DNA of 64,000 nt, from the NCBI GenBank assembly GCA_018713665.1, contig DVOI01000040.1:1324-65323 (forward strand), written 5' to 3'. The translations under genes and the position numbers were made by a program. The notes under the pieces are model-generated. The model searched no databases and had not been told where the DNA came from. It saw nothing but the letters and a program-made list of their open reading frames with translations. This DNA is from Candidatus Ornithoclostridium faecigallinarum. GTDB lineage: Bacteria > Bacillota > Clostridia > Christensenellales > UBA3700. Below, piece after piece: positions 2,749-46,746 of this stretch (the stretch's first letter is position 1; the number at the start of each line of letters is the position of its first letter).

Positions 2749-3365
2749 AATTTTGCGCTGGCGCCTATCCTGGTCGCGCCTGCCTCGATGAATGCGCGCG
2801 CCGTCTCGGCGTCGCGAATGCCGCCTGCGGCTTTGATGCCGAGGTCGCCGCAATTTGCCTTGATGATCTCGACCGCGTGCAGCGTCGCGCCCGCCTTTGA
2901 AAAGCCCGTACTCGTCTTGACGATGTCCGCGCCGGAGCGCACGCATATCTTCGTCGCCTCGGCGATCTGCTCGTCGGTGAGCAGACACTCTTCGATGATG
3001 ACTTTGAGCGTGACTCCGCAGGCGTGCTTGACCGCGGCGATGTCCTTCGCGACATAGTCAAAGTCGCCGCCTTTGAGCGCGCCGACCGCCATCACCATAT
3101 CGATTTCGTCAGCGCCGTCCTCGACCGCCTTGGCAGCCTCGAAAGCCTTGACTTCGGTTGCCGACGCACCGAGCGGAAAGCCGACGACGCACGCGACGCC
3201 CACTCCGCTGCCGCGCAGCAGCTGCCTGCAAAGCGCAACATACGCGCCGTTTACGCACACGTTGGCATAGCCGCGTTCCTTCGCGATCTTGCACAATTCC
3301 TCAATGTCGGCGCGGGTCGCGTCCGGTTTGAGATTGGTAAAGTCTATGTATTGTTCGAGTTGCAT
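2745..3365 (-). CDS. deoC: Deoxyribose-phosphate aldolase
   Basis: Full-length DeoC-like 206 aa with FPLGASATEVK, DEIDMV and the Schiff-base Lys context IVKTSTGF. Confidence 0.93.
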   Translation of the reverse strand: MQLEQYIDFTNLKPDATRADIEELCKIAKERGYANVCVNGAYVALCRQLLRGSGVGVACVVGFPLGASATEVKAFEAAKAVEDGADEIDMVMAVGALKGGDFDYVAKDIAAVKHACGVTLKVIIEECLLTDEQIAEATKICVRSGADIVKTSTGFSKAGATLHAVEIIKANCGDLGIKAAGGIRDAETARAFIEAGATRIGASAKL

Positions 3366-3373
3366 AACTCCTC

Positions 3374-4636
3374 CTATTCAACTTTGCAGACAATCCTGTC
3401 GCGGACAATCGGCTTTTCGTCCGATACGACGAATGCCGAAGCGAGCCTTTGGGCAAATTCTTCGTCGCCGACGCGACTGTAATGCAATGTCGCGAGCGGC
3501 TGACCCTTGTTCACCCTATCGCCGGCGGCGACGTGTAATTTGACGCCGACTTCGGGCAATATCGCATCCTCTTTGACACGCCTTCCACCTCCCGCATCGA
3601 GCGCGACCGAAGCGACCGTCATAGCGTTTATGTCCGATATGTATCCGCCTTTCGGCGCAAAAACCGTCTTTTTGCACTTGCTTTGCGGCAGATTTTGCAA
3701 ACATCCCTGTTTGCCGCCGAGCGCGTATATCATTTGCTCAAACTTTTCATACGCCGCGCCCGAAGATATCGCCCGATCGAACGCTTCGCCGTCCGTGCCG
3801 AGCTGCGCGCAAAGCGCCTTGGCAACCTCGTAGACGTCGCCCCTCTCTCTGCCCGACAGCACGTCGAGCGCGGAGCGCACCTCAATCGCGTTGCCGACCG
3901 CGCTCTCGAGCGGCATGTCCATCGTCGTGACCAACGCCGAAACATTGCGTCCGGCACGCCTGCCGATGTCGACCATCGTCCGCGCAAGCGTCTTTGCGGC
4001 GTCCTCGTCCTTCATGAACGCGCCTCTTCCCGTCTTGACGTCGAGCACGATGTTTTTCGCCCCTGCGGCGAGTTTTTTGCTCATCACCGACGCGGCGATC
4101 AGCGGCATACTGTCCACGGTCGCGGTCACGTCGCGCAATGCGTAAAGATACTTGTCCGCGGGGCACAATTGCGCCGTCTGCCCCGCAATCACTATCCCGA
4201 TGTCGTCGACAATCTCGAAAAATCTCTTCTCGGAAATGTCGGTATGTACGCCGTCAATCGACTCCAACTTGTCGAGCGTGCCGCCGGTATGCCCCAACCC
4301 TCTGCCGCTGAGCTTGGCGCAGATCTTGCCCGTCGCCGCCATCACCGGCATGACGATGAAGCTGGTGCCGTCGCCGACGCCGCCTGTGGAATGCTTGTCG
4401 ACGGTGGCGTCGCCGTAGCGCGACAGGTCGAGCATATCGCCGCTGTGCGCCATCGCGTCGGTCAGCGTCAACGTCTCGCGCGCGTCCATGCCGCCCATCG
4501 CAATCGCCATCAGCAGCGCGGAATTTTGATAGTCGGCAAAATCTTCGAGGTGATCGATCCAAAAACGGATCGCCTCGTCGTCGAGCGAGTTGCCGTGCCT
4601 CTTTTCGGCGATGATGTCGGTGATCTTCATACTCAT
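3374..4636 (-). CDS. pdp: Pyrimidine-nucleoside (thymidine) phosphorylase
   Basis: DKHSTGGVGD motif and family-typical length. The start is set at the ATG at 4636 (MSMKITDII), which forms an ATGA overlap with the upstream stop. Confidence 0.92.
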   Translation of the reverse strand: MSMKITDIIAEKRHGNSLDDEAIRFWIDHLEDFADYQNSALLMAIAMGGMDARETLTLTDAMAHSGDMLDLSRYGDATVDKHSTGGVGDGTSFIVMPVMAATGKICAKLSGRGLGHTGGTLDKLESIDGVHTDISEKRFFEIVDDIGIVIAGQTAQLCPADKYLYALRDVTATVDSMPLIAASVMSKKLAAGAKNIVLDVKTGRGAFMKDEDAAKTLARTMVDIGRRAGRNVSALVTTMDMPLESAVGNAIEVRSALDVLSGRERGDVYEVAKALCAQLGTDGEAFDRAISSGAAYEKFEQMIYALGGKQGCLQNLPQSKCKKTVFAPKGGYISDINAMTVASVALDAGGGRRVKEDAILPEVGVKLHVAAGDRVNKGQPLATLHYSRVGDEEFAQRLASAFVVSDEKPIVRDRIVCKVE

Positions 4637-4959
4637 TTGCGCCGTCTTGCCGCGCTGTCGCACAGCGCGTTTACCGCACCCGGATCCGCCTCATGCCCCG
4701 TCTTGCCAATCTCGTAGACGAGATCGGCGTCGTCGGTGACCTCCGCGCGTGCATAGCCCATCGCGAGCAAACCCTCGCGCACGTCGTCGAAGAACGCGCG
4801 CCTTGCGGTCAGCGTGAACATCGGATCGGTCCTGAGACCGACGATGATCGCGTCTTTGCCCGAGGCGGAATAGGTCCACCCCGTCACGTTTTCAAACGAA
4901 GCGAGAAAACTCTCCACTCCGACATATTGCACTTCTGCGGCACGAATGTCGATATCCAT
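4633..4959 (-). CDS. Hypothetical protein (108 aa)
   Basis: GC3-rich ORF in the operon orientation. Its stop overlaps the pdp start (ATGA). No recognisable motif, and the SD is weak. Confidence 0.55.
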   Translation of the reverse strand: MDIDIRAAEVQYVGVESFLASFENVTGWTYSASGKDAIIVGLRTDPMFTLTARRAFFDDVREGLLAMGYARAEVTDDADLVYEIGKTGHEADPGAVNALCDSAARRRK

Positions 4960-4988
4960 ACCGAAAATATGCCCCTTTGCGACGCAGG

Positions 4989-5360
4989 TTATTCTCCGCT
5001 TTCCTCAAACCGCGCAACGTTGGAACCGTCGCCCCAGAGCTGTTCGAGCGAATAGGTCTTGCGAGTCTCTTCCTCGAAGACGTGGACGATGACGTCGCCG
5101 TAGTCGAGCACGACCCATTTGCCGCCGCTCCTGCCCTCGACGCGCAAAGCGGCGACGCCGAATTGCTTCTCCATGATCTCTTCGAGATTTTCGGCGAGCG
5201 CCTTGACTTGCGTCGTCGAGCGGCCGCTCGCAATCACGAACCAATCGGCGATCGAAGTGAGCCCTTCGAGCGCGACGCAGGTCACGTCGAGCGCCTTTTT
5301 GGAATCGAGCGCCTTGCAAATTTCCTCTTTAAGTTGTGTAGTATCCATATTTCTCCTCAA
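4989..5360 (-). CDS. rsfS: Ribosome silencing factor RsfS (YbeB/iojap family)
   Basis: DVTCVALEGLTSIADWFVIASGRSTTQVKALAENL...VVLDYGDVIVHVF is typical of RsfS. The start is 5360 (ATGA overlap) or 5348 (MDTTQL). Confidence 0.9.
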   Translation of the reverse strand: MRRNMDTTQLKEEICKALDSKKALDVTCVALEGLTSIADWFVIASGRSTTQVKALAENLEEIMEKQFGVAALRVEGRSGGKWVVLDYGDVIVHVFEEETRKTYSLEQLWGDGSNVARFEESGE

Positions 5361-6481
5361 TTGTTTCGATAGTATTCCGCCGCGCGCAGCGTCAGCGGAT
5401 AGATGTCCGCTCCCTTCTCGACGAGATAGTCGTACGAGCGGATAAGACAGGCGCGGAAGCCCTTTTCAAAGTCGCGTCTTATTGTGCGGCGCAGCTCTTC
5501 GACGCCGTCAAAGTCACGCGCCGGCTCGAGCATGTCCGCGCAAAAAATGAGCTTGTCGAGCGTATTCATGTCGGGCTTGCCGGTGCAATGGCAGGCAATC
5601 GCACCGATCACATCGCCGTCCGTCACGCCGTACTCTCTCTCCGCCAAGTAGGCGCCCATAAATTGGTGTTCGACCTCGCTGCCGACACAGTCCGCCGGGA
5701 CGTGCGAGACGTCGTGCGGCTCGCGGCATATCTTCTTCGCGCAGTCGTGCAGCATCGCCGCCAAAAACACCTTGTCGCCGTCAAGCCCCAAACCGCACTC
5801 GAAATCGAGTCCGAGCGCGCAGACGACGGTGCGCTTGATGTGTTCGTACGTCTTCGGCAACACCGCTCCTTTCAGCTTGTCCGCAAGCGGCGTGTACCAA
5901 TCGTAAAGCCCGTGCTCTTGCACGTACGCTGCGACCTCGGGCGAAAGCGCCGAATAGTCGCGCATGGACGCGAGATAGCGCGCCGCGGTCGACGACACAC
6001 CGTCGGGCATGAAGTCGTCGGCATATATCCTCGCCCCTCTGCCGCGCCAAAATTCGAGCGCGGCGGCAAAGCTCTCGTCTCTGTCCTTGCGAGGGAAAGC
6101 GAGCAATGGCACCTCGGCGACGACCTTGTCGGGCTCGCGCCACTTGCCCAAATCTATCAGGCTGTCTCCGCCGATGACAAAGACGCAGTCGCCGTATTTG
6201 TCGACAAGCTTCGGCAGCGTGAGATAACTGTAATGCACCGCCCCGTCGCCGCCCTCGATGGTGTCGACGGACATATCCGCCCTTCCGGCGATCGCCGCCT
6301 CGAGCATTGCGACACGGTCGTGAAAGTCGGCGGTGCACCGCTTGTGCGGAGGATTCGCCGACGGAACGAAGACGACGCGCTCGCAACCGAGCTCCAAAGC
6401 CCTCTCCGCCATTTGAATGTGCGCGGCGTGCGGAGGATCGAATGCGCCTCCGAGCAGCGCCGTCCCGTGCAAAGGTCTCAT
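5357..6481 (-). CDS. nadD: Fusion protein: nicotinate-nucleotide adenylyltransferase (NadD) plus YqeK-type HD phosphohydrolase
   Basis: The N-terminal half has GGAFDPPHAAH (GxFxPxHxxH). The C-terminal half has LAAMLHDCAKK and the AIACHCTGKPDMNTLDKLIFCADMLEP HD-domain pattern. The ORF extends to 6499; the start is placed at the ATG at 6481 because a TATAAT box lies 6 nt upstream. Confidence 0.85.
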   Translation of the reverse strand: MRPLHGTALLGGAFDPPHAAHIQMAERALELGCERVVFVPSANPPHKRCTADFHDRVAMLEAAIAGRADMSVDTIEGGDGAVHYSYLTLPKLVDKYGDCVFVIGGDSLIDLGKWREPDKVVAEVPLLAFPRKDRDESFAAALEFWRGRGARIYADDFMPDGVSSTAARYLASMRDYSALSPEVAAYVQEHGLYDWYTPLADKLKGAVLPKTYEHIKRTVVCALGLDFECGLGLDGDKVFLAAMLHDCAKKICREPHDVSHVPADCVGSEVEHQFMGAYLAEREYGVTDGDVIGAIACHCTGKPDMNTLDKLIFCADMLEPARDFDGVEELRRTIRRDFEKGFRACLIRSYDYLVEKGADIYPLTLRAAEYYRNN

Positions 6482-6983: not shown

Positions 6984-9698
6984 TTATCTCGCAATGTTGA
7001 AGGTCACCGTCTTTTCGCCCGCCTTTCTGAACTTGAGCGTTTCGCTCTGTCCGGACAGACCGCAGGTGACGACAATCGTCTGCGCCTTTTCGGAAGATAT
7101 CGTCGCGGTGACCGTGCCTGTGGCAAGCGACCACGTCATATCGGTGAGCACCGCATTCGACTTCAATCTGATACCCGAGATCCTTCCGGAGTCGAATCCG
7201 CTGAGCGGCAGCGCGGGCAGCAACTGTACCGCGCCCGGCTTTGCATAGACAAGGCTTTCGTTGATTATGCCTACATAGCCTATCGCAAAGTCGGTGCAAT
7301 AGCCGCTGGACGCGTCGGTGTGGTGATTTGTCATCAAAGAGTCGTAATAGATGTTGCTGTGCATCAATCCCTCGAGAGCCTCGGTGACGATCTCGGCGCT
7401 CTCCAACTTTGCTCCGATCAGCGCGCGGTGGACGAGCGCGTGGCTCGCCTCGTTTTCGGACGCGCGAATGTCGACCGCCTTGAGCGCAGCGTCGCGAAGC
7501 TCGGGATCGTCCTTGGTCATGTCGACCGGCCACGCGCAATAAAGGTGGCTGAGGTGGCGGTGCGAGTTGTTCTCTTCAAAGTCATAGCAAGCCCACTCTT
7601 TGAGCGCGCCGTCCTCGGTCAGGAGGGGCGGCAGCTTTTCGGCAAGCGCGTCCCACCTCGACGTGTCGACGGACGGGTTGATTGACCTTGCGACGTCTTT
7701 GAGCATCTCGATTGCGCTGAGGCATGCGGCAATGTCGACCGCCGAGTTCGCCGCCGCAGGCGAAGGATAGTTCGAAGGAGTGTTCTCGGGCGAATAGGAC
7801 GGGATGATGCAATAGGTCTCCCCCTCGCCGAGCGAAGTCTTGCCCTCCTCGTAGTGTATGTTGCCGTTCGCGTCGGTGTAGTATTCCGGCGTCAGCAATT
7901 GTTCCCAATAGTTGAAGTTCTTGAGCAGGAGCGGATACAAAATCTCCGTCTTGAGGTCGAGATATCCCTTCGATTTTATCGCTTCAATCTGCGCGTCGGT
8001 GAGGTCGGTCGCGCTCGTCGACAGCACCGACTTCAAAGCGTTCAAATCAAACTCTGTCGACACGGGCACGGAAATTTCGCCCCAACTCTGCAACGCCTCG
8101 TAGAGGGGCAGCAGCAGCCATGACGCGCCTGCGTTCCAATAGCGGAAGGGATAGGGATAGCAGCTTTCGGACATCAACGCCATGTCGCCGTCGCTGTTGA
8201 CGGGAGCCTGTATCGCGTCGGTATAGCCGTGCGTCGCCATCGCGTTGCTCTCCCAATCGTCAGCCTGTCGCAAGATGAAGTTGGCGTATCCTATCGGAGC
8301 CTCGGCGATGTTCGACGAATTGAGAGCGGAAACCTGCAAGTTGACGTTGGCGTCCATCGTGTACTTTGACCCCCAAGACGGCGCCCACTCGCCCGTCCAC
8401 ATGCCGTAAAGCCTGGGCGCGGCGCCTGTCGAGCTGCAAATCTGCGCGTATCTGCCCGAATAGTAAGCCTTTTGCGCAAGCGATGAGTCGATGCCGTCGG
8501 CAGGCTTGAGCAAATCCATCGCGCTCGGGAACAGGGACTCGTTTGCCGCGGTCGTGCCGCCGATGTCGAACGTGACCGCGTCGTATTGCGGCGTATAGAT
8601 TTCGGCGTGCGCGACGAGCGCCGCATGATAGTCAAAGCCGTCCTTTGTCGTATATTTGTCCGCAACAGCCTTGACCTTGGCGGCGAGAGACTGCGCCAAG
8701 TCGGTGTTTTCGGGCGCGGAGACGTCGCCCGTCAAGTTGTACGTCCTGTCCGAAACGGTGATGACATAGACGTCGGACGCGCCCTCAATCACGAGATTGA
8801 AATCGTTGTCGTCAACGTATTGGCTCTCGGACGGAGCCGCCTTGGAGACCACCTCTCGCGTGCCGCCCTCTGCAATCACATAGCTGACGGTCGCATAGCC
8901 GCCGTTCTTCAACTCGCTGTCTTCGTAACCCTCGCCGTCTTGGTAGTGAACGACGTAATACATATATTCGCCGTCGCCCGGCGCCGACTTGCCGTATCTC
9001 AAATCGTTTTGCGGCCCCGAGCGATCCATCTCGCCTATCGCGTAGGCGGACAGGTTGTCGTACGAAAGCGTCACGTCGACCGGCGTACCCGTGCTTGACG
9101 AGCCGATGTGAGTGATTGTCACGTCGTCGGCGAACGAAGTGAAAGTCTGCCGCTCCCACTCGCCGCCCGCGTCGGTATAGCGCACCCCGACGCGCGCGCT
9201 GCGATAGTCTGTGTAGCGCATATAGCCGCTCTCGCTGCCCTCGTCGCGCGTGATGCGCAGCGTCGCGGCGGGATGATAGTCGTACACATCGAGATAGGGT
9301 TGATCGTCTGTGATGTCCTTGCCCTCGACGATGTTTTGACGCACCGTCTCAAGCTCGTCCGCGGTGTCGAACGCGTCGTTGCTGCGCGGATTCTTGTTTG
9401 GCAAAATGAAATGTATGTTTTGGAAGATGATCGTGTCCGAATAGGGCGACCCTGCAATGACCGCGCCCTGAACGCCGTTGCCCGTGACCATACCGTCGCG
9501 CCAAAGGCTGCGGTTGCCGTGCGAAGGCGAACCGAGCTGAGTGTATTTGTAAGAATATGACGACGTGGCGTTCGGCTCAAATCTCTTTTCCAAAAACGAC
9601 GAATCGAACTCCTCTTTGTCTCTGCAGCCGGCGGCGGCGAAACACACCACACACAACGTCAATGCGATCAAGACGACCGCCAAAACTTTTTTCCTCAT
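6984..9698 (-). CDS. Glycoside hydrolase family 95-like (alpha-L-fucosidase type) lipoprotein
   Basis: Signal peptide plus lipobox (VCFAAAGC). The GH95 N-terminal pattern is LWRDGMVTGNGVQGAVIAGSPYSDTIIFQN, and HRHLSHLYCAWP is in the catalytic region. Confidence 0.8.
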   Translation of the reverse strand: MRKKVLAVVLIALTLCVVCFAAAGCRDKEEFDSSFLEKRFEPNATSSYSYKYTQLGSPSHGNRSLWRDGMVTGNGVQGAVIAGSPYSDTIIFQNIHFILPNKNPRSNDAFDTADELETVRQNIVEGKDITDDQPYLDVYDYHPAATLRITRDEGSESGYMRYTDYRSARVGVRYTDAGGEWERQTFTSFADDVTITHIGSSSTGTPVDVTLSYDNLSAYAIGEMDRSGPQNDLRYGKSAPGDGEYMYYVVHYQDGEGYEDSELKNGGYATVSYVIAEGGTREVVSKAAPSESQYVDDNDFNLVIEGASDVYVITVSDRTYNLTGDVSAPENTDLAQSLAAKVKAVADKYTTKDGFDYHAALVAHAEIYTPQYDAVTFDIGGTTAANESLFPSAMDLLKPADGIDSSLAQKAYYSGRYAQICSSTGAAPRLYGMWTGEWAPSWGSKYTMDANVNLQVSALNSSNIAEAPIGYANFILRQADDWESNAMATHGYTDAIQAPVNSDGDMALMSESCYPYPFRYWNAGASWLLLPLYEALQSWGEISVPVSTEFDLNALKSVLSTSATDLTDAQIEAIKSKGYLDLKTEILYPLLLKNFNYWEQLLTPEYYTDANGNIHYEEGKTSLGEGETYCIIPSYSPENTPSNYPSPAAANSAVDIAACLSAIEMLKDVARSINPSVDTSRWDALAEKLPPLLTEDGALKEWACYDFEENNSHRHLSHLYCAWPVDMTKDDPELRDAALKAVDIRASENEASHALVHRALIGAKLESAEIVTEALEGLMHSNIYYDSLMTNHHTDASSGYCTDFAIGYVGIINESLVYAKPGAVQLLPALPLSGFDSGRISGIRLKSNAVLTDMTWSLATGTVTATISSEKAQTIVVTCGLSGQSETLKFRKAGEKTVTFNIAR

Positions 9699-29583: not shown

Positions 29584-29866
29584 CCGCGCATAACGGCACA
29601 CCTTCGCGGCGCGCAGAACGGTTTTGTTCCGCGCTCGCTTTGCGGCGCGGCACTTTTCGCCGTCTTGGGCGGCTCGTTTGCGCGCTTTTGCGTTTCAGAG
29701 AACGCCCGCGTACCATTGAGGTACAGCGGACAACCTCTTCACCGCAAAATCATCGCAAGTCACTCGCCCAATACTACACGGTTCTGTTGATCTAATTGTT
29801 TCGCAGCCTACATAAAATGCGGATGAGACTACCAATTTGATAGAAATATAAAAATAATTGACACCG

Positions 29867-30026
29867 TCTCTTGACAAAACTTACACGAAACTTAAAGTCT
29901 GATAAGAGGATAAGGGCAACTCACCCCAACTCCGCCGCCGGTCGCACCGGCACGAAACTTAAAGCCTTGATGAGAGGGTAAAAACATCTCATCCCAACTT
30001 TGCCGCCGACAATTTTTGTCAAGAGA
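29867..30026. repeat. Composite repeat: 30-nt element, two 67-bp tandem units (29884-29950, 29951-30010), and an inverted 16-nt partial copy (30011-30026)
   Basis: tctcttgacaaaacttacacgaaacttaaa (29867-29896) matches the reverse complement of 47863-47892 at 29 of 30 positions. Both units start with cacgaaacttaaag and are about 75% identical. aatttttgtcaagaga at 30011-30026 is the inverted 5' part. Confidence 0.8.
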
Positions 30027-30084
30027 CAGAGCACATATTTTTCAAAATACTTGCCTCTCAAACCGGCATATGCCGAAATTGCAT

Positions 30085-30114
30085 AAAAAAACGCGCCTTG
30101 TGCGGCGCGTTTTC
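30085..30114. terminator. Bidirectional rho-independent terminator (ends the GH38 gene)
   Basis: aaaaaaa-acgcgcc-ttgtgc-ggcgcgt-tttt. Confidence 0.75.
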
Positions 30115-30116
30115 GA

Positions 30117-36418: not shown

Positions 36419-38149
36419 ATGCGTAAATTGGTCAGGTATTTGAAGAATTACAAGCTCAATCTCACCTTGGGTCCGCTCGCAAAGCTGACGGAGGCGATCT
36501 TTGAGCTGATCGTCCCCCTCGTGATGTCCGACATCATCGACAACGGCATCGACGGCGACGGCGGCATCGAATATGTGCTCTCGCACGGCGCGATCATGGT
36601 CGCTCTCGGCGTGATGGGGCTTGCGTGCGCGCTCACCTGCCAATACCTTGCGGCAAAGTGCTCGCAGGGCTTCGGCACCGAGCTGCGCAACGACCTTTTC
36701 CGCCACATCAACACACTGTCGTTCAAGGAGCTGGACAAGTTCGGCACGCCGTCCATCGTCAACCGCCTGTCCTCGGACGTCAATCAATTGCAATATATGG
36801 TCGCGATGCTGATTCGTCTCGTCATTCGCGCGCCCTTCCTCGTGATCGGCGCGGCGGTCATGGCGATGACGATCAACCTCAAGCTGTCGCTGGTGTTCAT
36901 CGCGGCGGCGCCGCTCATCGCTGTCGCGCTCTACTTCATCATGTCGCGCAGCATCCCCCTCTACAAGAACGTACAGCAAAAGCTGGACAAAGTCGCGCAG
37001 ATCACGCGCGAAAACCTCTCCGGCGTGCGCGTCGTCCGCGCCTTCTCCGAACAGGAATACGAAAAAGACCGCTTTGACAAGTCGGCGGACGAATTGACGC
37101 GCGGCGCGATCGTCGTCGGACGCATCTCCGCGCTGCTCAACCCCGCGACCTTCGTCATCATCAACGCAGCGATCATCGCGATCCTTTGGTTCGGAGGCGG
37201 ACTTGTCAACACCGGCGAAATGACGCAGGGCGAGGTGTTCGCGTTCGTCAACTATATGACGCAAATCTCGCTCGCGCTCGTCGTCGTCGCCCAACTCGTC
37301 GTCACCGTCACCAAAGCGATCGCGTCGGGCACGCGCGTCGTCGAACTGCTCGACGCGACTCCCTCGATCACCGACGACGGCAACACCGAGGTCGACACCT
37401 CCGTCGACTCCCCTGCGGTCAAATTCGACCATGTCTCCTTTGGCTACAACGAGGGCAAATACACGCTGACCGACCTCACTCTGACCGTACCGCGCGGCGC
37501 GAGCGTGGGCGTCATCGGCGGCACAGGCAGCGGCAAGTCGACGCTGGTCAACCTGCTTGCGCGCTTTTACGACGTGTCCGAAGGCAGCGTCGAGCTGTTC
37601 GGGACGGACGTCAAAAAATATCCGCTCAAACAATTGCGCCGCACCGTCGCGTATGTGCCGCAAAACACGATGCTCTTTTCGGGCACGATACGCTCCAATC
37701 TGCTGATGGGCGGACGCGACGCGGACGACGAGACGCTGTGGAAGTGCCTCGAAACAGCGCAGGCGGCGTCCTTTGTCCGCGAAAAGGAAAAGGGCTTGGA
37801 TTCGGTCGTGATGCAGGGCGGCAAGAACTTCTCGGGAGGGCAGCGCCAACGCCTTGCGGTCGCGCGCGCTCTCGCCGCTAACTCCGACATCCTTGTCCTC
37901 GACGACTCGTCGTCCGCGCTCGACTTTGCGACCGACCTCAACATGCGCACCGCGATCAACGCGACTCGCGGCGACACGACGCTCTTCCTCGTCTCGCAGC
38001 GCGCGACTTCGCTCAAAGACTGCGACGTCATTGTCGTCCTCGACGGCGGACTCGTCGCCGGCATTGGCAAACACGACGACTTGCTCAAAACTTGCGACGT
38101 GTATCGCGAAATTTACCTCTCTCAAACGGACGGAGGTGCCAAGCAATGA
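36419..38149 (+). CDS. ABC exporter, fused permease/ATPase (heterodimer subunit 1)
   Basis: Six-TM N-terminal half, Walker A GGTGSGKST, signature FSGGQRQR and Walker B ILVLDD. Confidence 0.9.
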   Translation: MRKLVRYLKNYKLNLTLGPLAKLTEAIFELIVPLVMSDIIDNGIDGDGGIEYVLSHGAIMVALGVMGLACALTCQYLAAKCSQGFGTELRNDLFRHINTLSFKELDKFGTPSIVNRLSSDVNQLQYMVAMLIRLVIRAPFLVIGAAVMAMTINLKLSLVFIAAAPLIAVALYFIMSRSIPLYKNVQQKLDKVAQITRENLSGVRVVRAFSEQEYEKDRFDKSADELTRGAIVVGRISALLNPATFVIINAAIIAILWFGGGLVNTGEMTQGEVFAFVNYMTQISLALVVVAQLVVTVTKAIASGTRVVELLDATPSITDDGNTEVDTSVDSPAVKFDHVSFGYNEGKYTLTDLTLTVPRGASVGVIGGTGSGKSTLVNLLARFYDVSEGSVELFGTDVKKYPLKQLRRTVAYVPQNTMLFSGTIRSNLLMGGRDADDETLWKCLETAQAASFVREKEKGLDSVVMQGGKNFSGGQRQRLAVARALAANSDILVLDDSSSALDFATDLNMRTAINATRGDTTLFLVSQRATSLKDCDVIVVLDGGLVAGIGKHDDLLKTCDVYREIYLSQTDGGAKQ

Positions 38150-39891
38150 AGACAAAAGAGACATTGAAACGCATCGTCGGCTACATCTCCCCCTACAAGG
38201 GCTATGTCGCGCTGTCGCTGATCTCGGCAATCCTGTCGGTCGCGGCTACGCTGGCGGCGCCCGTCTGCATTGGCAAGGCGATCGACTATATCATCGGCCC
38301 CGGCAACGTCGACTTCACAACGGTCGGCAAGTATATCGCGCTGATCGGCGGCACGATCGTCGTCGGCGGCGTCTTCCAATGGACGCTGTCGCTTGCGACC
38401 AACAAGCTCGCGTTCCTCGCAGTCAACGAGATGCGCAAACAGCTGTTCGCCCACATCGACCGCCTGCCGCTGTCGTACATCGACTCGCACGCGCACGGCG
38501 ACCTCATCACCCGCATGGCAAGCGACATCGAGCAGATCTCCAACGGCATATTGCAGGGCTTCTCACAGCTCTTGACGGGCGTGTTCACGATCGCCGGCAC
38601 GCTGGGCATCATGCTCGCGATCCAATGGCAGGTCGCGCTGGTCGTCATCGTCATCACTCCCCTTTCGCTGTTCGTCGCGACATTCGTCGCCAAGCACTCC
38701 AACGCGATGTTCCGCAAGCAGTCGGACACGCAGGGCAAGCTGGGCGGTTACAGCGAAGAGATGCTCGAAGGACAGCGCATCGTCGCCGCGTTCGGCTATG
38801 AAGAAGAGGCGCAAAAGACGTTTGAGGAGATCGACGCCGTCCTCTACAAATACGGCGTAAAATCGCAATTTTACAGCTCGCTGACCAACCCGTGCACCCG
38901 CTTTGTAAACAACCTCGTCTATGCGGCGGTCGGCATCATAGGCGCGGTGATTGCGATCCTCTACGGCACGATGAGCGCGGGCACGCTGTCCACTTTCCTC
39001 ATCTACGCCAACCAATACACCAAGCCGTTCAACGAGATCACCGGCGTCATCACCGAACTGCAAACCGCGTTTGCGTGCGCAAGGCGCGTGTTCGCCGTCT
39101 TGGACGAGCCCGAAGAGAGCCCCGACGACGACTTGCCCGAGATCGAAGAGTGCCTCGGCACCGTCGAGTTCGACGACGTCTGCTTCGGCTACTCGCCCGA
39201 CAAGCCGCTGTTGCAACACATCGACGTAAAGGCGGATAAAGGCAAAAAGATCGCAATCGTCGGCCCCACCGGCTGCGGCAAGACGACAATGATCAATCTG
39301 CTGATGCGCTTCTATGACGTGGACAGCGGCGAGATCCGCGTGTCCGACGCGCCCGTCAAATCGGTCAAACGCAACTCGTTGCGCGGTCAATTCGGAATGG
39401 TGCTCCAAGACACTTGGCTGTTCGAAGGCACCGTCCGCGACAACATCGCCTACGGCAGACGCGGCGCGACCGACGAAGAAGTCATCGCCGCCGCACAAGC
39501 CGCACACGCGCACCGCTTCATCAGCAAGCTCGCAGACGGCTACGACACCGTGATCACCGAAAGCGGCGGCAACCTGTCGCAAGGACAGCGGCAATTGCTG
39601 TGTATCGCGCGTATCATGCTCACACATCCGCCCATGCTCATCCTCGACGAGGCGACGTCCAACATCGATACCCGCACCGAGATCCGCATCCAAAAGGCGT
39701 TCGCCGAGATCATGAAGGGGCGCACCAGCTTCATCATCGCCCACCGCCTGTCCACAATCCGCGACGCCGACCTCATCCTCGTGATGAAAGACGGCAACAT
39801 CATCGAACAGGGCACGCACGAACAATTGCTCGACAAGGGCGGATTCTACAAAGAGCTTTACGAGAGTCAGTTCAAAAAAGCTGCGCTTTGA
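38146..39891 (+). CDS. ABC exporter, fused permease/ATPase (heterodimer subunit 2)
   Basis: Start at 38146 (ATGA overlap). Walker A GPTGCGKTT, signature LSQGQRQL and Walker B MLILDEATS. Confidence 0.9.
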   Translation: MKTKETLKRIVGYISPYKGYVALSLISAILSVAATLAAPVCIGKAIDYIIGPGNVDFTTVGKYIALIGGTIVVGGVFQWTLSLATNKLAFLAVNEMRKQLFAHIDRLPLSYIDSHAHGDLITRMASDIEQISNGILQGFSQLLTGVFTIAGTLGIMLAIQWQVALVVIVITPLSLFVATFVAKHSNAMFRKQSDTQGKLGGYSEEMLEGQRIVAAFGYEEEAQKTFEEIDAVLYKYGVKSQFYSSLTNPCTRFVNNLVYAAVGIIGAVIAILYGTMSAGTLSTFLIYANQYTKPFNEITGVITELQTAFACARRVFAVLDEPEESPDDDLPEIEECLGTVEFDDVCFGYSPDKPLLQHIDVKADKGKKIAIVGPTGCGKTTMINLLMRFYDVDSGEIRVSDAPVKSVKRNSLRGQFGMVLQDTWLFEGTVRDNIAYGRRGATDEEVIAAAQAAHAHRFISKLADGYDTVITESGGNLSQGQRQLLCIARIMLTHPPMLILDEATSNIDTRTEIRIQKAFAEIMKGRTSFIIAHRLSTIRDADLILVMKDGNIIEQGTHEQLLDKGGFYKELYESQFKKAAL

Positions 39892-39957
39892 GAGGGCACC
39901 ATTGCGCTGTCCTGCTCAATCGGCTTACGCCTCATATACGCAGGCGCAATGGTTCCC

Positions 39958-40087
39958 GGGGGTACTCACCCTCCACGGGACAAGCGCTCGCTCACCGCTC
40001 GCGGTCCCGTAAGGTGAAGTCCCCGAAGAGCGCGGTCATTCGGGGACTTCGCTATCAAGTCGCGCGAGAAGCGCGGTTTCGCGCGAC
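39958..40087 (+). repeat. Structured element copy 1 (sense to the ABC exporter 3' end): conserved 18-mer plus hairpins H1 and H2
   Basis: The 18-mer gctcgctcaccgctcgcg lies at 39986-40003. H1 (40016-40050) is gaagtccccgaa-GAGCGCGGTCA-ttcggggacttc. H2 (40059-40087) is gtcgcgcga-GAAGCGCGGTT-tcgcgcgac. It is preceded by hairpin 39894-39957. Confidence 0.8.
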
Positions 40088-40160
40088 AAGTGTCGTCATT
40101 TATTCCGCTGTATAAAAGTCAAAACGAACAGTTGCCTTTTACGAACAAGGTTGCGTTCAC

Positions 40161-40282
40161 ATCTCGCCCAACCGCGCTTGGGCGAGATACGATAACGCGG
40201 CTGTCAAATGACCGCGCTCTTTGACAGCCGCCCCTAGCGCGGTCGCGAGCGGTGAGCGAGCGTGCCGCGTGGGAAGGGGTAT
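40161..40282 (-). repeat. Structured element copy 2 (sense to the ilvN-like 3' end): the same 18-mer plus hairpins H4 and H3
   Basis: The reverse complement of 40244-40261 is identical to the 18-mer. H4 (40199-40229) is ggctgtcaaa-TGACCGCGCTC-tttgacagcc. H3 (40161-40188) is atctcgccca-ACCGCGCT-tgggcgagat. The loops are exact reverse complements of the H1 and H2 loops, while the stems are unrelated. Confidence 0.8.
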
Positions 40283-40385
40283 TTTAGGGGAAAACCGAAA
40301 ATAGCGAGTATGAGAAACGGCGACGATTGCATTTGCAATCATCGCCGTTGCGATTCGATGCGTCATTTTCGGGTTGCCCCTAAAA
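40283..40385 (-). other. ~100-nt extended hairpin immediately downstream of the ilvN-like gene
   Basis: The outer helix pairs ttttaggggaaaaccgaaaat (40283-40303) with attttcgggttgcccctaaaa (40365-40385). The inner 14-bp helix pairs 40319-40332 with 40335-40348. Confidence 0.7.
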
Positions 40386-40394
40386 GCGAAGCCG

Positions 40395-40892
40395 TTAAAC
40401 TCCCCTATCTATCGCCGTAATACCCGTGCGGCACACGTTCTTGACGCGCATTCCTTCGCGCGACTTGCAAAGGTCGGAGATTGCGGCGGCGAAGTTGTCT
40501 ATCTTGCGGCTGGTGCCTGTGAGCTCCAAGATCATCGACTTGGACGTGATGTCGAGGATGAGCGCGCCGAATTCGTCGGCGAGCTGAACGATCGAGTTGT
40601 CGAATTGACCGGTCGTGACCACCTTGACAAGGATGAGTTCGCGGCACACGCTGTCCTCTTCTTTGAGGGCGGTGACGTTGATCGTCTCCTCAAGTTTGGA
40701 CGTCTGTTTGATGATCTGATCGAGAGTATTCTCGTCACCTCTCGCGGTGATCGTGATGCGCGAGATCTTGGGGTCGTCCGTCGTCGCGACCGAGAGAGAA
40801 TCGATGTTGAAGCCTCTCCTGCCGAACAGACTGCTGACCCTTGAGAGCACGCCCGAATTGTTGTAAACCACTACCGATACGATATGTTTCAT
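40395..40892 (-). CDS. ilvN: Acetolactate synthase small (regulatory, ACT-domain) subunit-like protein, with no large subunit nearby
   Basis: MKHIVSVVVYNNSGVLSRVSSLFGRRGFNIDSLSV...ELILVKV is the classic IlvN/IlvH pattern. The start at 40892 has SD AGGTGG. Confidence 0.85.
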   Translation of the reverse strand: MKHIVSVVVYNNSGVLSRVSSLFGRRGFNIDSLSVATTDDPKISRITITARGDENTLDQIIKQTSKLEETINVTALKEEDSVCRELILVKVVTTGQFDNSIVQLADEFGALILDITSKSMILELTGTSRKIDNFAAAISDLCKSREGMRVKNVCRTGITAIDRGV

Positions 40893-41023: not shown

Positions 41024-41836
41024 TCAATCAATAAAATCGATCGGCGTGACCTCTGTTTGATCGATGTATGCGTATGTCGCCGCGCCGAATTCTATTTTGC
41101 CTCCGTCGCCGATGCGCGCGGACGCCTCGCCGCTCACTGCCTTGTGACCGTATGCATAATAGAGCCTCAAGATTTCTTCGGTATAGACATAGCCGCCGAA
41201 AACGATCGTTGCGGATTCATACTTCTTACCGCCGTCATTTGACGGCAAGTCGACATACATGCCGACCGGGACATACCCGTTGTCGAACAATACCGCACCC
41301 TCTTCGTCTCCTTGCATTCGGAAGGTATCGACGCCTTCGGCATGACGGAACGCCGCCTCGCCGAATTCGTACTCCGCCTTTCCGTAAACGGCGCCGTTAG
41401 CGACCGAATACAGCACGGTATCCGTGAGGCGATAGCCGGGCATTTTGCTCCAATGCGCCCAAATCTGCACCGTCCATCTCGTGTACTTTTCTTCGACAAT
41501 CTCGCCGTCGGTCGACATCACGCAATACATCTCGAGCCCGTCGTCATATTCTATCATATCGACAAACAGCGCGTCGGACTGCGCAAGCCTGTCTATCACT
41601 TCGTCCGACAGGTCGGCGACGACTTGTTCGTCTACGCCGAGCGAGACCAGCTCCGCCTTCACCACGTCTCTTCCCGAGGCGTCACCGCCCGAGGTCGCGA
41701 CTTTTGCGGACAGATCGAACAAACTTTGCGGATCGTAAAAATCGGATCGTCCCTCGCCGACGGAACATGCGGCAAAAACCGCCGTCATGCACATCAACGC
41801 AACTGCGATTGCCGCAATCAAAGCCTTTGTCTTCAT
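41024..41836 (-). CDS. Hypothetical lipoprotein (270 aa)
   Basis: MKTKALIAAIAVALMCMTAVFAAC lipobox and SD GGAGGTG 5 nt upstream of the ATG at 41836. Confidence 0.75.
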   Translation of the reverse strand: MKTKALIAAIAVALMCMTAVFAACSVGEGRSDFYDPQSLFDLSAKVATSGGDASGRDVVKAELVSLGVDEQVVADLSDEVIDRLAQSDALFVDMIEYDDGLEMYCVMSTDGEIVEEKYTRWTVQIWAHWSKMPGYRLTDTVLYSVANGAVYGKAEYEFGEAAFRHAEGVDTFRMQGDEEGAVLFDNGYVPVGMYVDLPSNDGGKKYESATIVFGGYVYTEEILRLYYAYGHKAVSGEASARIGDGGKIEFGAATYAYIDQTEVTPIDFID

Positions 41837-41978
41837 AAGCACCTCCACAGCTCAACCATATACTAACACAATATTATAAATTTGTCAATACCACTTTTTC
41901 GAAGAAAACCGCAAGACGACACGGGCACAAATTTTCGTGCCCGTGTCGGTTATACACACTTCTTTGCGCATGCCGCTC

Positions 41979-46698: not shown

Positions 46699-46712
46699 CG
46701 CGACAAAATGCA

Positions 46713-46746
46713 ATCGCCGCTCCGATTGGAGCGGCGATATTTTTTG
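46713..46746 (+). terminator. Rho-independent terminator of the GH2 gene
   Basis: atcgccgctcc-gatt-ggagcggcgat followed by atttttt. Confidence 0.8.

Follow-up and report, generated by a model that had tools for sequence, protein, structure and literature searches.

Repetitive extragenic palindromes (REPs) can act on mRNA 3' ends, and REPs near stop codons affect translation. The BOX elements of Streptococcus pneumoniae and the Correia elements (CREE) of Neisseria are modular or short non-coding intergenic repeats that have stable folds and promoter-like or terminator-like signals and alter the 3' ends of neighbouring transcripts; BOX elements are made of boxA, boxB and boxC modules, and Correia elements are bounded by defined terminal inverted repeats and show a TA duplication. 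REPs themselves are short (about 20-40 nt) imperfect palindromes with a GT(A/G)G head, and their palindromes are kept by compensating changes (PMC2817692). Here we compare with these systems a locus in a 64,000-nt stretch of contig DVOI01000040.1 from Candidatus Ornithoclostridium faecigallinarum (the window, to which coordinates refer unless another locus is named). The gap between two convergent genes, one for an ABC exporter (stop codon TGA at 39889-39891) and one ilvN-like (stop codon at 40395-40397), is non-coding and densely structured. From 39880 to 40397 the window consists of two inverted arms, each with a segment T5, a long palindrome P1, a C-rich linker and the hairpins P2, P3 and P4. 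The arms belong to a repeat family that is dispersed, whose arrays stand at gene 3' ends in the orientation of the gene, whose stems covary while the loops are invariant, and whose modules are reshuffled among strains.

Two arms of one repeat unit

A first-pass annotation of the window had placed four hairpins (H1 to H4), an 18-mer and two long hairpins in the gap, and all of them were present when the window sequence was read again. Its description of the region as non-coding and densely structured also stood. Both arms fold far better than shuffled sequence (z = -5.3 and -7.7), each into P1, P2, P3 and P4. The arms are homologous units with the same T5-P1-linker-P2-P3-P4 order. Exact copies of the 18-mer GCTCGCTCACCGCTCGCG lie at 39986 (+) and 40244 (-). 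Inverted homology extends outward at both ends, over the last codons and the stop of the exporter gene (39880-39893) on one side and up to the ilvN stop (40386-40397) on the other, and T5 of the exporter arm forms an inverted repeat with 40372-40392. As a whole, the gap resembles an AT-poor element of 0.5-1 kb with imperfect inverted ends (GCTKCGCTTTKAGRGGGCAMCC); because its internal composition is variable, these ends are simply two outward-facing P1 modules.

The loop motif AGCGCGGT, whose reading direction we used to define the sense orientation of a unit, occurs 15 times in the window against 5.6 expected, a count that 0 of 100 shuffles reached. Five copies fall within 215 bp at the gap, and among all window copies only the four in H1-H4 are hairpin loops; the fifth copy at the gap (40236-40243) is unpaired and forms the 3' strand of the ilvN-arm P2 (ACCGCGCT). 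It had been proposed that the H1 and H4 loops, and likewise those of H2 and H3, could form kissing pairs. Their complementarity on the + strand follows from the arms being inverted with the same loop motif and is no extra feature, and the pairing has gained no independent support. The GAGCG of the P3 loop and the CGCTC (CGCUC) of the P2 loop, also considered as possible pairing partners, are both invariant across copies.

Anatomy of the family

A unit of the family is about 210-270 nt long, has four different helices and runs in the order T5, P1, C-rich linker, P2, P3, P4, spacer. T5 is about GCTYCGCTTT. P1 is an imperfect palindrome of 65-105 nt: its foot, TT[G/T]AGGGG(C)A(A)CC..., pairs with ...GGTT(TT)CCCC(TCAA/TAAA) around conserved C.T mismatches, and its inner hairpin is variable in sequence and perfectly paired. 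The linker is TACTCCCCCTCC. P2 encloses a conserved loop of about 20 nt with stems of four types, the ACGGGAC/GTCCCGT of the exporter arm covarying with ACACGAC/GTCGTGT, CAGGGG/CCCCTG and CGCGG/CCGCG in other copies. P3 presents the loop GAGCGCGGTCR on the stem alleles gaagtccccgaa, gaagtcaccgaa/ttcggtgacttc, gcagtcccc/ggggactgc, ggctgtcaaa, gcgccttgccaaa and gccctcgtcgaa. It is separated by a GTTATC spacer from P4, which presents AAGCGCGGTT on gtcgcgcga, gtcgcgcgg, atcgcgcgg or atctcgccca. Alleles of P3 never occupy the P4 site, nor P4 alleles the P3 site.

The spacer module is S1, S2 or Z, and several different modules are found joined to the downstream side of S1. Before internal P1 copies stands a promoter-like S1 (TTGACT, 18-19 nt, TATGAT, then CUGCCGCCUCCACGAGGCC) or S2 (TTGAGT, 18 nt, TATAAT), from which some arrays might make RNAs of about 95 nt. 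The spacer shared by the two arms in the window carries a degenerate copy of a promoter-like TTGACT...GCGGA(T) box on the - strand and shares 92% identity with its counterpart at the orthologous locus in the sister species (L051; sampled loci carry L numbers).

Two other identities were considered for parts of the arrays and rejected. Small open reading frames (ORFs) within arrays are not conserved among copies, and indels between strains are not multiples of three. For P1, a selenocysteine insertion (SECIS) or other stop-codon recoding element and a tRNA-like T-loop do not fit, as the stop codons are TAA, TGA or TAG and often lie upstream of T5, and TTCGAATC is not conserved in A-type P1.

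Stems covary around fixed loops

Covariation was quantified in two alignments. In the 34 hand-selected units of alignment A1, 92% of the cells were paired, compared with 32-47% when the pairing was slid, double changes occurred at 17 of the 32 pairs, and the covariation value was 0.42 against 0.17 after shuffling. In alignment A2, with 85 distinct model-aligned copies, the corresponding values were 90% against 32-48%, 29 of 32 pairs, and 0.41 against 0.15. None of 500 shuffles matched the observed values in either alignment, and loops and linker were invariant or nearly so. The aligned copies are paralogues from a limited set of alleles; therefore, the cell counts overstate the number of independent events. 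The retention of one loop by several unrelated stems is nevertheless robust, and the earlier observation on four hairpins now extends to 85 distinct copies.

Two of its details needed adjustment. The four stems had been said to share no sequence. The stems of H1-H4 do differ, but an xTCxCGC/GCGxGAx frame, its differences compensated, is common to H2 and H3, and H1 has its closing AA/TT pairs in common with H4. The stems had also been described as replaced with full compensation; the compensation is real, but the replacements are a few recurring alleles that recombine, not the product of independent drift.

Copy number and distribution

We searched one genome per species (185,579 species) for a loop-pair pattern consisting of the P3 loop, 26-38 nt and the P4 loop. 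About 20 hairpin-flanked matches were found at 16 loci of OZ006985.1, the complete 1.8-Mb chromosome of an uncultured Christensenellaceae bacterium belonging to the window's species, and nine loci were found in a second species-level Christensenellaceae metagenome-assembled genome (MAG). Across the same species set, matches outside these two genomes were chance matches without hairpins. A metagenome scan added 27 further real loci with the same stem repertoire. A covariance model, R1, built on the linker, P2, P3 and P4, matched 92 times in 529 kb of sampled DNA, full units making up about 70 of the matches; in the window it found only the two arms, and in the loci of sister lineages it found none. 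The genome search thus returned many copies in the window's species and its sister species, and the two arms, first presented as a special pair at a single locus, are members of a dispersed, multi-copy and mosaic family.

The family appears to be unnamed so far. Rfam searches at gathering and permissive thresholds, covering the window region, a second repeat-rich gap and four long arrays, returned nothing relevant, in agreement with the first-pass annotation; the only hits, elsewhere in the searched DNA, were a tRNA and a thiamine pyrophosphate (TPP) riboswitch, and sub-threshold matches in the region were noise (E >= 0.012). The longest variant had no blastn match in phage and plasmid collections, and a looser loop-pair pattern gave 11 chance matches without hairpins in viral contigs. 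Phages, plasmids and sampled loci likewise yielded no autonomous relative, an insertion sequence with the same ends. Literature searches found no description of the family and nothing published on the repeat content of Christensenellaceae.

These searches also brought up neighbours and look-alikes. The tRNA gene (L029, 2554-2627) lies about 200 nt past one array, and the TPP riboswitch (L068, 11-107) is upstream of the gene that precedes another. By chance, the loop pattern caught an unrelated tandem repeat of ~39 nt (..AAGCGCNNNNNAAAAAGCGCGGTTGCNGGTGGGCAAC..) in Alphaproteobacteria of the Hyphomicrobiales/Methyloligella type (L025, L052, L064, L067, L069, L074, L089, L103 and L130), which looks like a separate repeat family.

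Position at gene 3' ends and loss of the ancestral terminator

At 28 of the 36 informative array ends, the stop codon of a co-oriented long ORF, with GC content at third codon positions (GC3) of at least 0.6, was located between -30 and +12 nt relative to the P1 foot, either as a TAA 7-15 nt upstream or as a TGA or TAG inside TTGAGGGG/TTTAGGGG. Almost all distinct P1 variants (53 of 56) contain an inner GC-rich hairpin of -17 to -28 kcal/mol with, after it on the sense strand, 5 or more U within 8 nt, the U-tracts being UUUUCAUA, UUUUUCAU or UUUCUCAU. The P1 core therefore has the parts by which an intrinsic terminator is defined, a GC-rich stem-loop and a U-tract oriented with the gene, and some copies are also called by a generic terminator scan. 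In the window, the interior of the ilvN-arm P1 qualifies: a perfect 16-bp GC-rich hairpin (40316-40349) is followed on the - strand by UUUCUCAU (about 40308-40317), and hairpin and tail together look like an intrinsic terminator. No other credible terminator was found in the window gap, where the lone weak call of the generic scan (40083-40096, 5 pairs, tail CATTTATTCC) does not exceed what shuffled sequence produces; canonical terminators are present elsewhere in the window, for example at 46707-46745.

Comparison with relatives reveals the earlier state of the gap. Lineages whose IlvN is 90% and 85% identical have the same gene order, a gap of 45 or 119-155 nt and no repeat modules. Each has a textbook terminator that is bidirectional; one lineage reads AAAAAAAGCGCCCC-TTTTC-GGGGCGCGTTTTCG, the other AAAAAGACCGCGCC-TGAC-GGCGCGGTCGATTTTT. 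In the sister species, with an IlvN 97.5% identical, an array is present at the ilvN locus. It follows that, once the 90% lineage had split off, the array took over the site of the terminator and of the last three exporter codons, and it now occupies the place of the canonical bidirectional terminator that the sister lineages have kept.

In the lineage with 85% identical IlvN (L078-L081, 3999-4153), the terminator stem GACCGCGCC-TGAC-GGCGCGGTC includes GCGCGGTC, the core of the invariant loop motif, which may be a coincidence or a hint of the origin of the motif. One of these loci (L081) has a 36-nt tandem duplication in the same gap.

Strain variation and mosaicism

The window and ten further genomes found by their identical IlvN protein formed a set of 11 strains. 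Among them, the length of the gap ranged from 503 to 1021 nt, with 2-4 units in at least 8 architectures. Modules were swapped, inverted, duplicated or deleted between strains: A-type and B-type P1 changed places between the two ends of the gap, the alleles of P1, P2, P3 and P4 combined differently, and module Z (roughly 270 nt) occurred in either orientation (L001 vs L006). In other intergenic regions of the strains' 12.5-kb stretches, the modules were absent. Variation extends into the flanking genes. At the exporter end, alternative T5/P1 types begin right after ...cagttcaaa. In one strain (L003, exporter at 7486-9252; window 38092-39891), a T5/P1 chimera (A-type T5, B-type P1) has one extra T ahead of the TGA, so that the exporter reads into P1 and ends 7 residues later (588 vs 581 aa). 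At the other end, variation in T5 reaches the second base of the ilvN stop codon (TAA vs TGA in L003). Single-armed arrays exist as well (L043 and L068).

Junctions between alleles were located in T5, in or beside P1, in the linker, in the AAGG before P3, in GTTATC and in the loops. The loop junctions comprise hybrid hairpins with the left arm of H2 and the right arm of H3 (L048 and L072) and joins of Z to the loop and right arm of H4 or H1. They are expected from ordinary recombination because the loop is the sole sequence that different stem alleles share. Site-specific recombination at the loops was rejected as a necessary cause, as breakpoints occur in all conserved stretches.

Several observations concern the surroundings of the arrays. 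A second repeat-rich gap in the window (29584-30116), between convergent genes (AraC-like on the + strand, alpha-mannosidase on the - strand), has no Rfam match. It contains a copy of module Z (29620-29800) with about 82% identity to the Z of other strains' ilvN gap, and two direct repeats of ~55 nt (acgaaacttaaag..ccgcc) inside an inverted repeat (gacaccgtctcttgacaaaa / ttttgtcaagagacagagc); in L043, a pair of similar kind, CTCTTGACA...TGTCAAGAG, comes after the single unit. Between the NYN-domain gene and ilvN, the window carries a putative lipoprotein gene of 270 residues (41024-41848, -), which 4 of the 10 relatives share (about 5057-5869 in L001-L010) and which the other 6 lack despite identical IlvN. 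At L048 of OZ006985.1, an IS1595-like transposase gene (4338-5381) and a nucleotidyltransferase gene (5336-5899), which looks to be of the lincosamide/aminoglycoside type, stand beside an array within 28-bp inverted ends (4253-5983). Both genes look foreign, because of their low GC3. This transposase was rejected as the mover of the family, its own inverted ends being unrelated to the array ends. At the same locus, the last 19 nt and the stop of a tryptophan-synthase-beta-like gene (3331-3356) recur as a 96% inverted copy (3912-3937) located 555 nt downstream, across a Z-containing array, an arrangement that suggests an inversion with an endpoint in the 3' end of the gene.

Feature map of the gap

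The features of the two arms are collected in Table 1.

Table 1. Modules of the exporter arm and the ilvN arm in window coordinates
Feature	Position	Strand	Description
T5, exporter arm	39880-39893	+	GCTGCGCTTTGAGA; gives the exporter's last three codons and TGA stop
P1, exporter arm	39894-39957	+	Outer stem GGGCACCATTGCGC/GCGCAATGGTTCCC with one C.T mismatch
C-rich linker, exporter arm	39958-39974	+	GGGGGTACTCACCCTCC; conserved columns of alignment A1
P2, exporter arm	39975-40010	+	Stem ACGGGAC/GTCCCGT; conserved loop includes the 18-mer (39986-40003)
P3, exporter arm (H1)	40016-40050	+	Stem gaagtccccgaa, loop GAGCGCGGTCA; perfect hairpin
P4, exporter arm (H2)	40059-40087	+	Stem gtcgcgcga, loop GAAGCGCGGTT; perfect hairpin
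Spacer common to both arms	40088-40160	no strand	AT-richer, S-type module
P4, ilvN arm (H3)	40161-40188	-	Stem atctcgccca, loop core AGCGCGGT; perfect hairpin; loop listed as ACCGCGCT
P3, ilvN arm (H4)	40197-40231 (perfect hairpin H4 40199-40229)	-	Stem gcggctgtcaaa, loop GAGCGCGGTCA; H4 loop listed as TGACCGCGCTC
P2, ilvN arm	40238-40269	-	Stem CGCGG/CCGCG around the 18-mer (40244-40261)
Linker, ilvN arm	40270-40281	-	ATACCCCTTCCCA on the - strand
P1, ilvN arm	40282-40385	-	21-bp outer stem with two conserved C.T mismatches
T5, ilvN arm	40386-40397	-	TAACGGCTTCGC on the - strand; abuts or includes the ilvN stop (40395-40397)

Interpretation and rival explanations

On the sequence evidence, we hold with moderate confidence that a modular mosaic repeat, lineage-specific and non-autonomous, forms the two-armed array in this region and is akin to BOX and to bacterial interspersed mosaic elements (BIMEs), that P1 serves as the terminator of the gene, and that the invariant loops probably bind a putative factor. 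In the mechanism we propose, P1 would now end transcription of the upstream gene through its GC-rich inner hairpin and U-tract, which would account for the placement at stop codons and the polarity of the arrays, and also for an inner stem that varies freely and an ancestral terminator that was lost. The many copies, direct and inverted, would undergo gene conversion and homologous or microhomology recombination with one another and so give rise to the mosaicism, with breakpoints falling in every conserved stretch, loops of 8-11 nt included. P2-P4 would be kept as folded hairpins, either as single-stranded DNA (ssDNA) or as read-through RNA, and the invariant loops may be the recognition site of a putative trans-acting protein that maintains or spreads the element. 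This last step is modelled on REP/BIME hairpins kept for their transposase and host proteins.

Several observations weigh against this reading. The exporter-arm P1 in the window has a degenerate inner hairpin (ggc-ttac-gcc, 39922-39931) followed by tcatatac, whereas other alleles of the module have a strong hairpin and a U-tract. If P1 terminates efficiently, P2-P4 would rarely be transcribed, and their conservation would then be unexplained. Internal wobble and mismatch counts do not indicate the folding strand, with G.U versus A.C cells numbering 5 versus 16 in A1 (an excess that is mostly P2 misalignment) and 27 versus 18 in A2. In the roughly 190 kb read, no multi-copy ORF that could be a transposase adjoins the arrays at the 16 loci of OZ006985.1, and neither a trans-acting protein nor an autonomous copy was found in the inspected DNA, about 10% of the genome. 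The ends of the element are fuzzy, T5 being conserved over 2 to 14 nt with a 5' boundary that differs among loci. Finally, no target-site duplication was seen when the ilvN locus was compared with the unoccupied sister gaps, so classical transposition is not demonstrated.

A bolder proposal, which we offer tentatively, is that the AGCGCGGT loops of P3 and P4, together with the conserved P2 loop, are docking sites of a putative loop-specific protein. The family would then be either a new kind of hairpin-guided mobile element that installs its own terminator at the ends of genes or a lineage-specific 3'-end regulon. If this were true, rapid module shuffling would make strains of a prevalent human-gut bacterium differ in how gene 3' ends are controlled, and in the regulon form a few dozen genes would be under one RNA-protein switch.

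The alternative that survives best, though we judge it rather unlikely, is a regulon of 3' untranslated regions (3'-UTRs). Units would be transcribed as mRNA extensions or from the S1/S2 promoters, and P3 and P4 (and P2) would show the AGCGCGGU loop to a sequence-specific RNA-binding protein; this protein would either control how stable a few dozen mRNAs are or how they are translated, or be titrated by them, on the model of iron-responsive elements (IREs) or CsrB-type decoys. Such a role would suit units that are strictly co-oriented with their upstream genes and begin at the stop codon, invariant loops on covarying stems, the repetition of one loop on several hairpins per unit, the promoter-like modules inside arrays, and the finding that between two species the arrays are at least as conserved as the neighbouring codons. 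It is weakened, and with it the 3'-UTR reading first given to the locus, by the terminator-like hairpin and U-tract that stand upstream of P2-P4 in nearly every unit and by internal wobble-versus-mismatch counts without strand bias, which single out no transcribed strand. Pairs at helix ends do favour the sense strand, with consistent G.U, but the P2 boundaries do the opposite, and the P1 inner hairpins have A.C in some alleles and U.G in others. Because a P1 terminator would itself explain the polarity, and P2-P4 lie downstream of it, polarity is no proof that P2-P4 act as RNA. In addition, many copies are hybrid or half hairpins unable to fold, the very narrow lineage and the structural instability between strains are more typical of selfish repeats, and the binding protein is purely putative, with no candidate.

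We consider it improbable that the family is a hairpin-guided ssDNA mobile element, in which P3 and P4, P1, or all of these would be nick or recognition sites for an enzyme of the HUH/Y1 type (like IS200 or the REP-associated tyrosine transposases, RAYTs) or another structure-specific recombinase encoded elsewhere, cutting in or beside the conserved loop and so moving or shuffling modules. Enzymes that read ssDNA structure tolerate variable stems if these are compensated and the loop is conserved, as here, and REP palindromes likewise keep complementarity by compensating mutations (PMC2817692). Several junctions fall exactly at the loop (H2-left/H3-right, and Z followed by loop and right arm of H4 or H1), but others are in T5, the linker, AAGG and GTTATC, so the loops alone are not the sites of exchange. 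A multi-copy, lineage-restricted and strain-variable family would be expected of such an element; yet P3 and P4 lie in the middle of the unit and not at its ends, no GT(A/G)G head is present, no transposase is near arrays at the 16 loci of OZ006985.1, and at both ends of convergent pairs the polarity is that of the gene, a pattern that replication-strand bias would not give.

Very improbable, finally, is the absence of any selection on the hairpins, with palindromes kept by templated (quasipalindrome) mutation and gene conversion and the loop merely inherited: intrastrand template switching in quasipalindromes can yield 'compensatory' changes in one step, and the family is young, narrow (two sister species), composed of a few discrete stem alleles without a continuum and rampantly recombining, but four to six unrelated P3 stems and three or four each of P4 and P2 keep the same loops and spacing, gene conversion would have homogenised the stems too, drift would alter loops as fast as stems, and P3 and P4 alleles never exchange positions.

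Implications

Christensenellaceae are prevalent, heritable members of the human gut microbiota. At the ilvN locus, a composite repeat equipped with a terminator-like core has taken the whole place of an ordinary terminator, a new example of such replacement. The gap, which shows at least 8 architectures among 11 genomes with identical flanking proteins, is a hypervariable site that is useful for strain typing and may cause differences in 3'-end expression. The frozen loops on compensated stems, in about 85 distinct copies, offer a clean test case for what reads a bacterial hairpin loop, an RNA-binding protein or an ssDNA enzyme. They also advise caution in covariation screens, as covariation can stem from a recombining repeat family and not from one conserved RNA gene.

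Comparison with known systems

By analogy, the family acts most like the REP/BIME, BOX or Correia-type intergenic repeats. With REPs and BIMEs it has in common dispersed extragenic hairpins, mosaic arrays in alternating orientation, a position at gene 3' ends, palindromes preserved through compensated changes, and a copy number and composition that vary among strains; its arrays comprise 1-4 units, in both orientations, at gene 3' ends. It differs in that units of about 210-270 nt with four helices take the place of 20-40-nt palindromes, the individual hairpins are 28-105 nt long with heterogeneous stems, and the loops, not the stems, are invariant. Copies number in the tens, compared with the more than 100 typical of the REPs of Enterobacteria and Pseudomonas, and the host is of a Firmicute lineage. 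Since no consistent GT(A/G)G precedes P1-P4, the family falls outside the REP definition; no RAYT gene was seen near the arrays (about 190 kb of OZ006985.1).

Like BOX and Correia elements, the family is a foldable intergenic repeat with promoter-like and terminator-like signals, but it has no sequence similarity to them, its ends are fuzzy and no duplication is seen. To our knowledge, a terminator embedded in a longer palindrome at the stop codon, together with invariant-loop hairpins, has not been described for either. [quoted passage not shown] What sets the family outside the definition of a MITE is that no target duplication was seen; the comparison with sister gaps shows instead that the whole gap and the last exporter codons were replaced. 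The first-pass annotation had held that its claim would fail if the element proved to be a known REP or MITE family. What we found comes close, a REP/MITE-like dispersed repeat, yet one that belongs to no known family.

Two further systems share single traits with it. CsrB and RsmZ, with their GGA loops, and IREs, which occur in the UTRs of many genes, likewise present one loop on several hairpins with different stems, and repeated hairpins with a conserved loop and variable stems are what the family has; however, its hairpins are downstream of a terminator-like signal and behave as recombining repeats, and protein binding is only putative. Integron attC sites resemble P1 as an imperfect palindrome of 65-105 nt with conserved mismatches and a variable central hairpin, located at or over the upstream stop in a fixed orientation. 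P1 was rejected as an attC site: its feet are GGGGCAACCC.../...GGTT(TT)CCCC, with no RYYYAAC/GTTRRRY core sites, no integrase or attI lies in the neighbourhood, and the host genes are core genes, convergent or in tandem, not cassette arrays. Set beside these systems, the family is unusual in its invariant loops in place of invariant stems, in a terminator placed within a longer palindrome at the stop codon, and in extreme within-species reshuffling at one locus. It is a previously undescribed family within a known general kind, the intergenic hairpin repeats.

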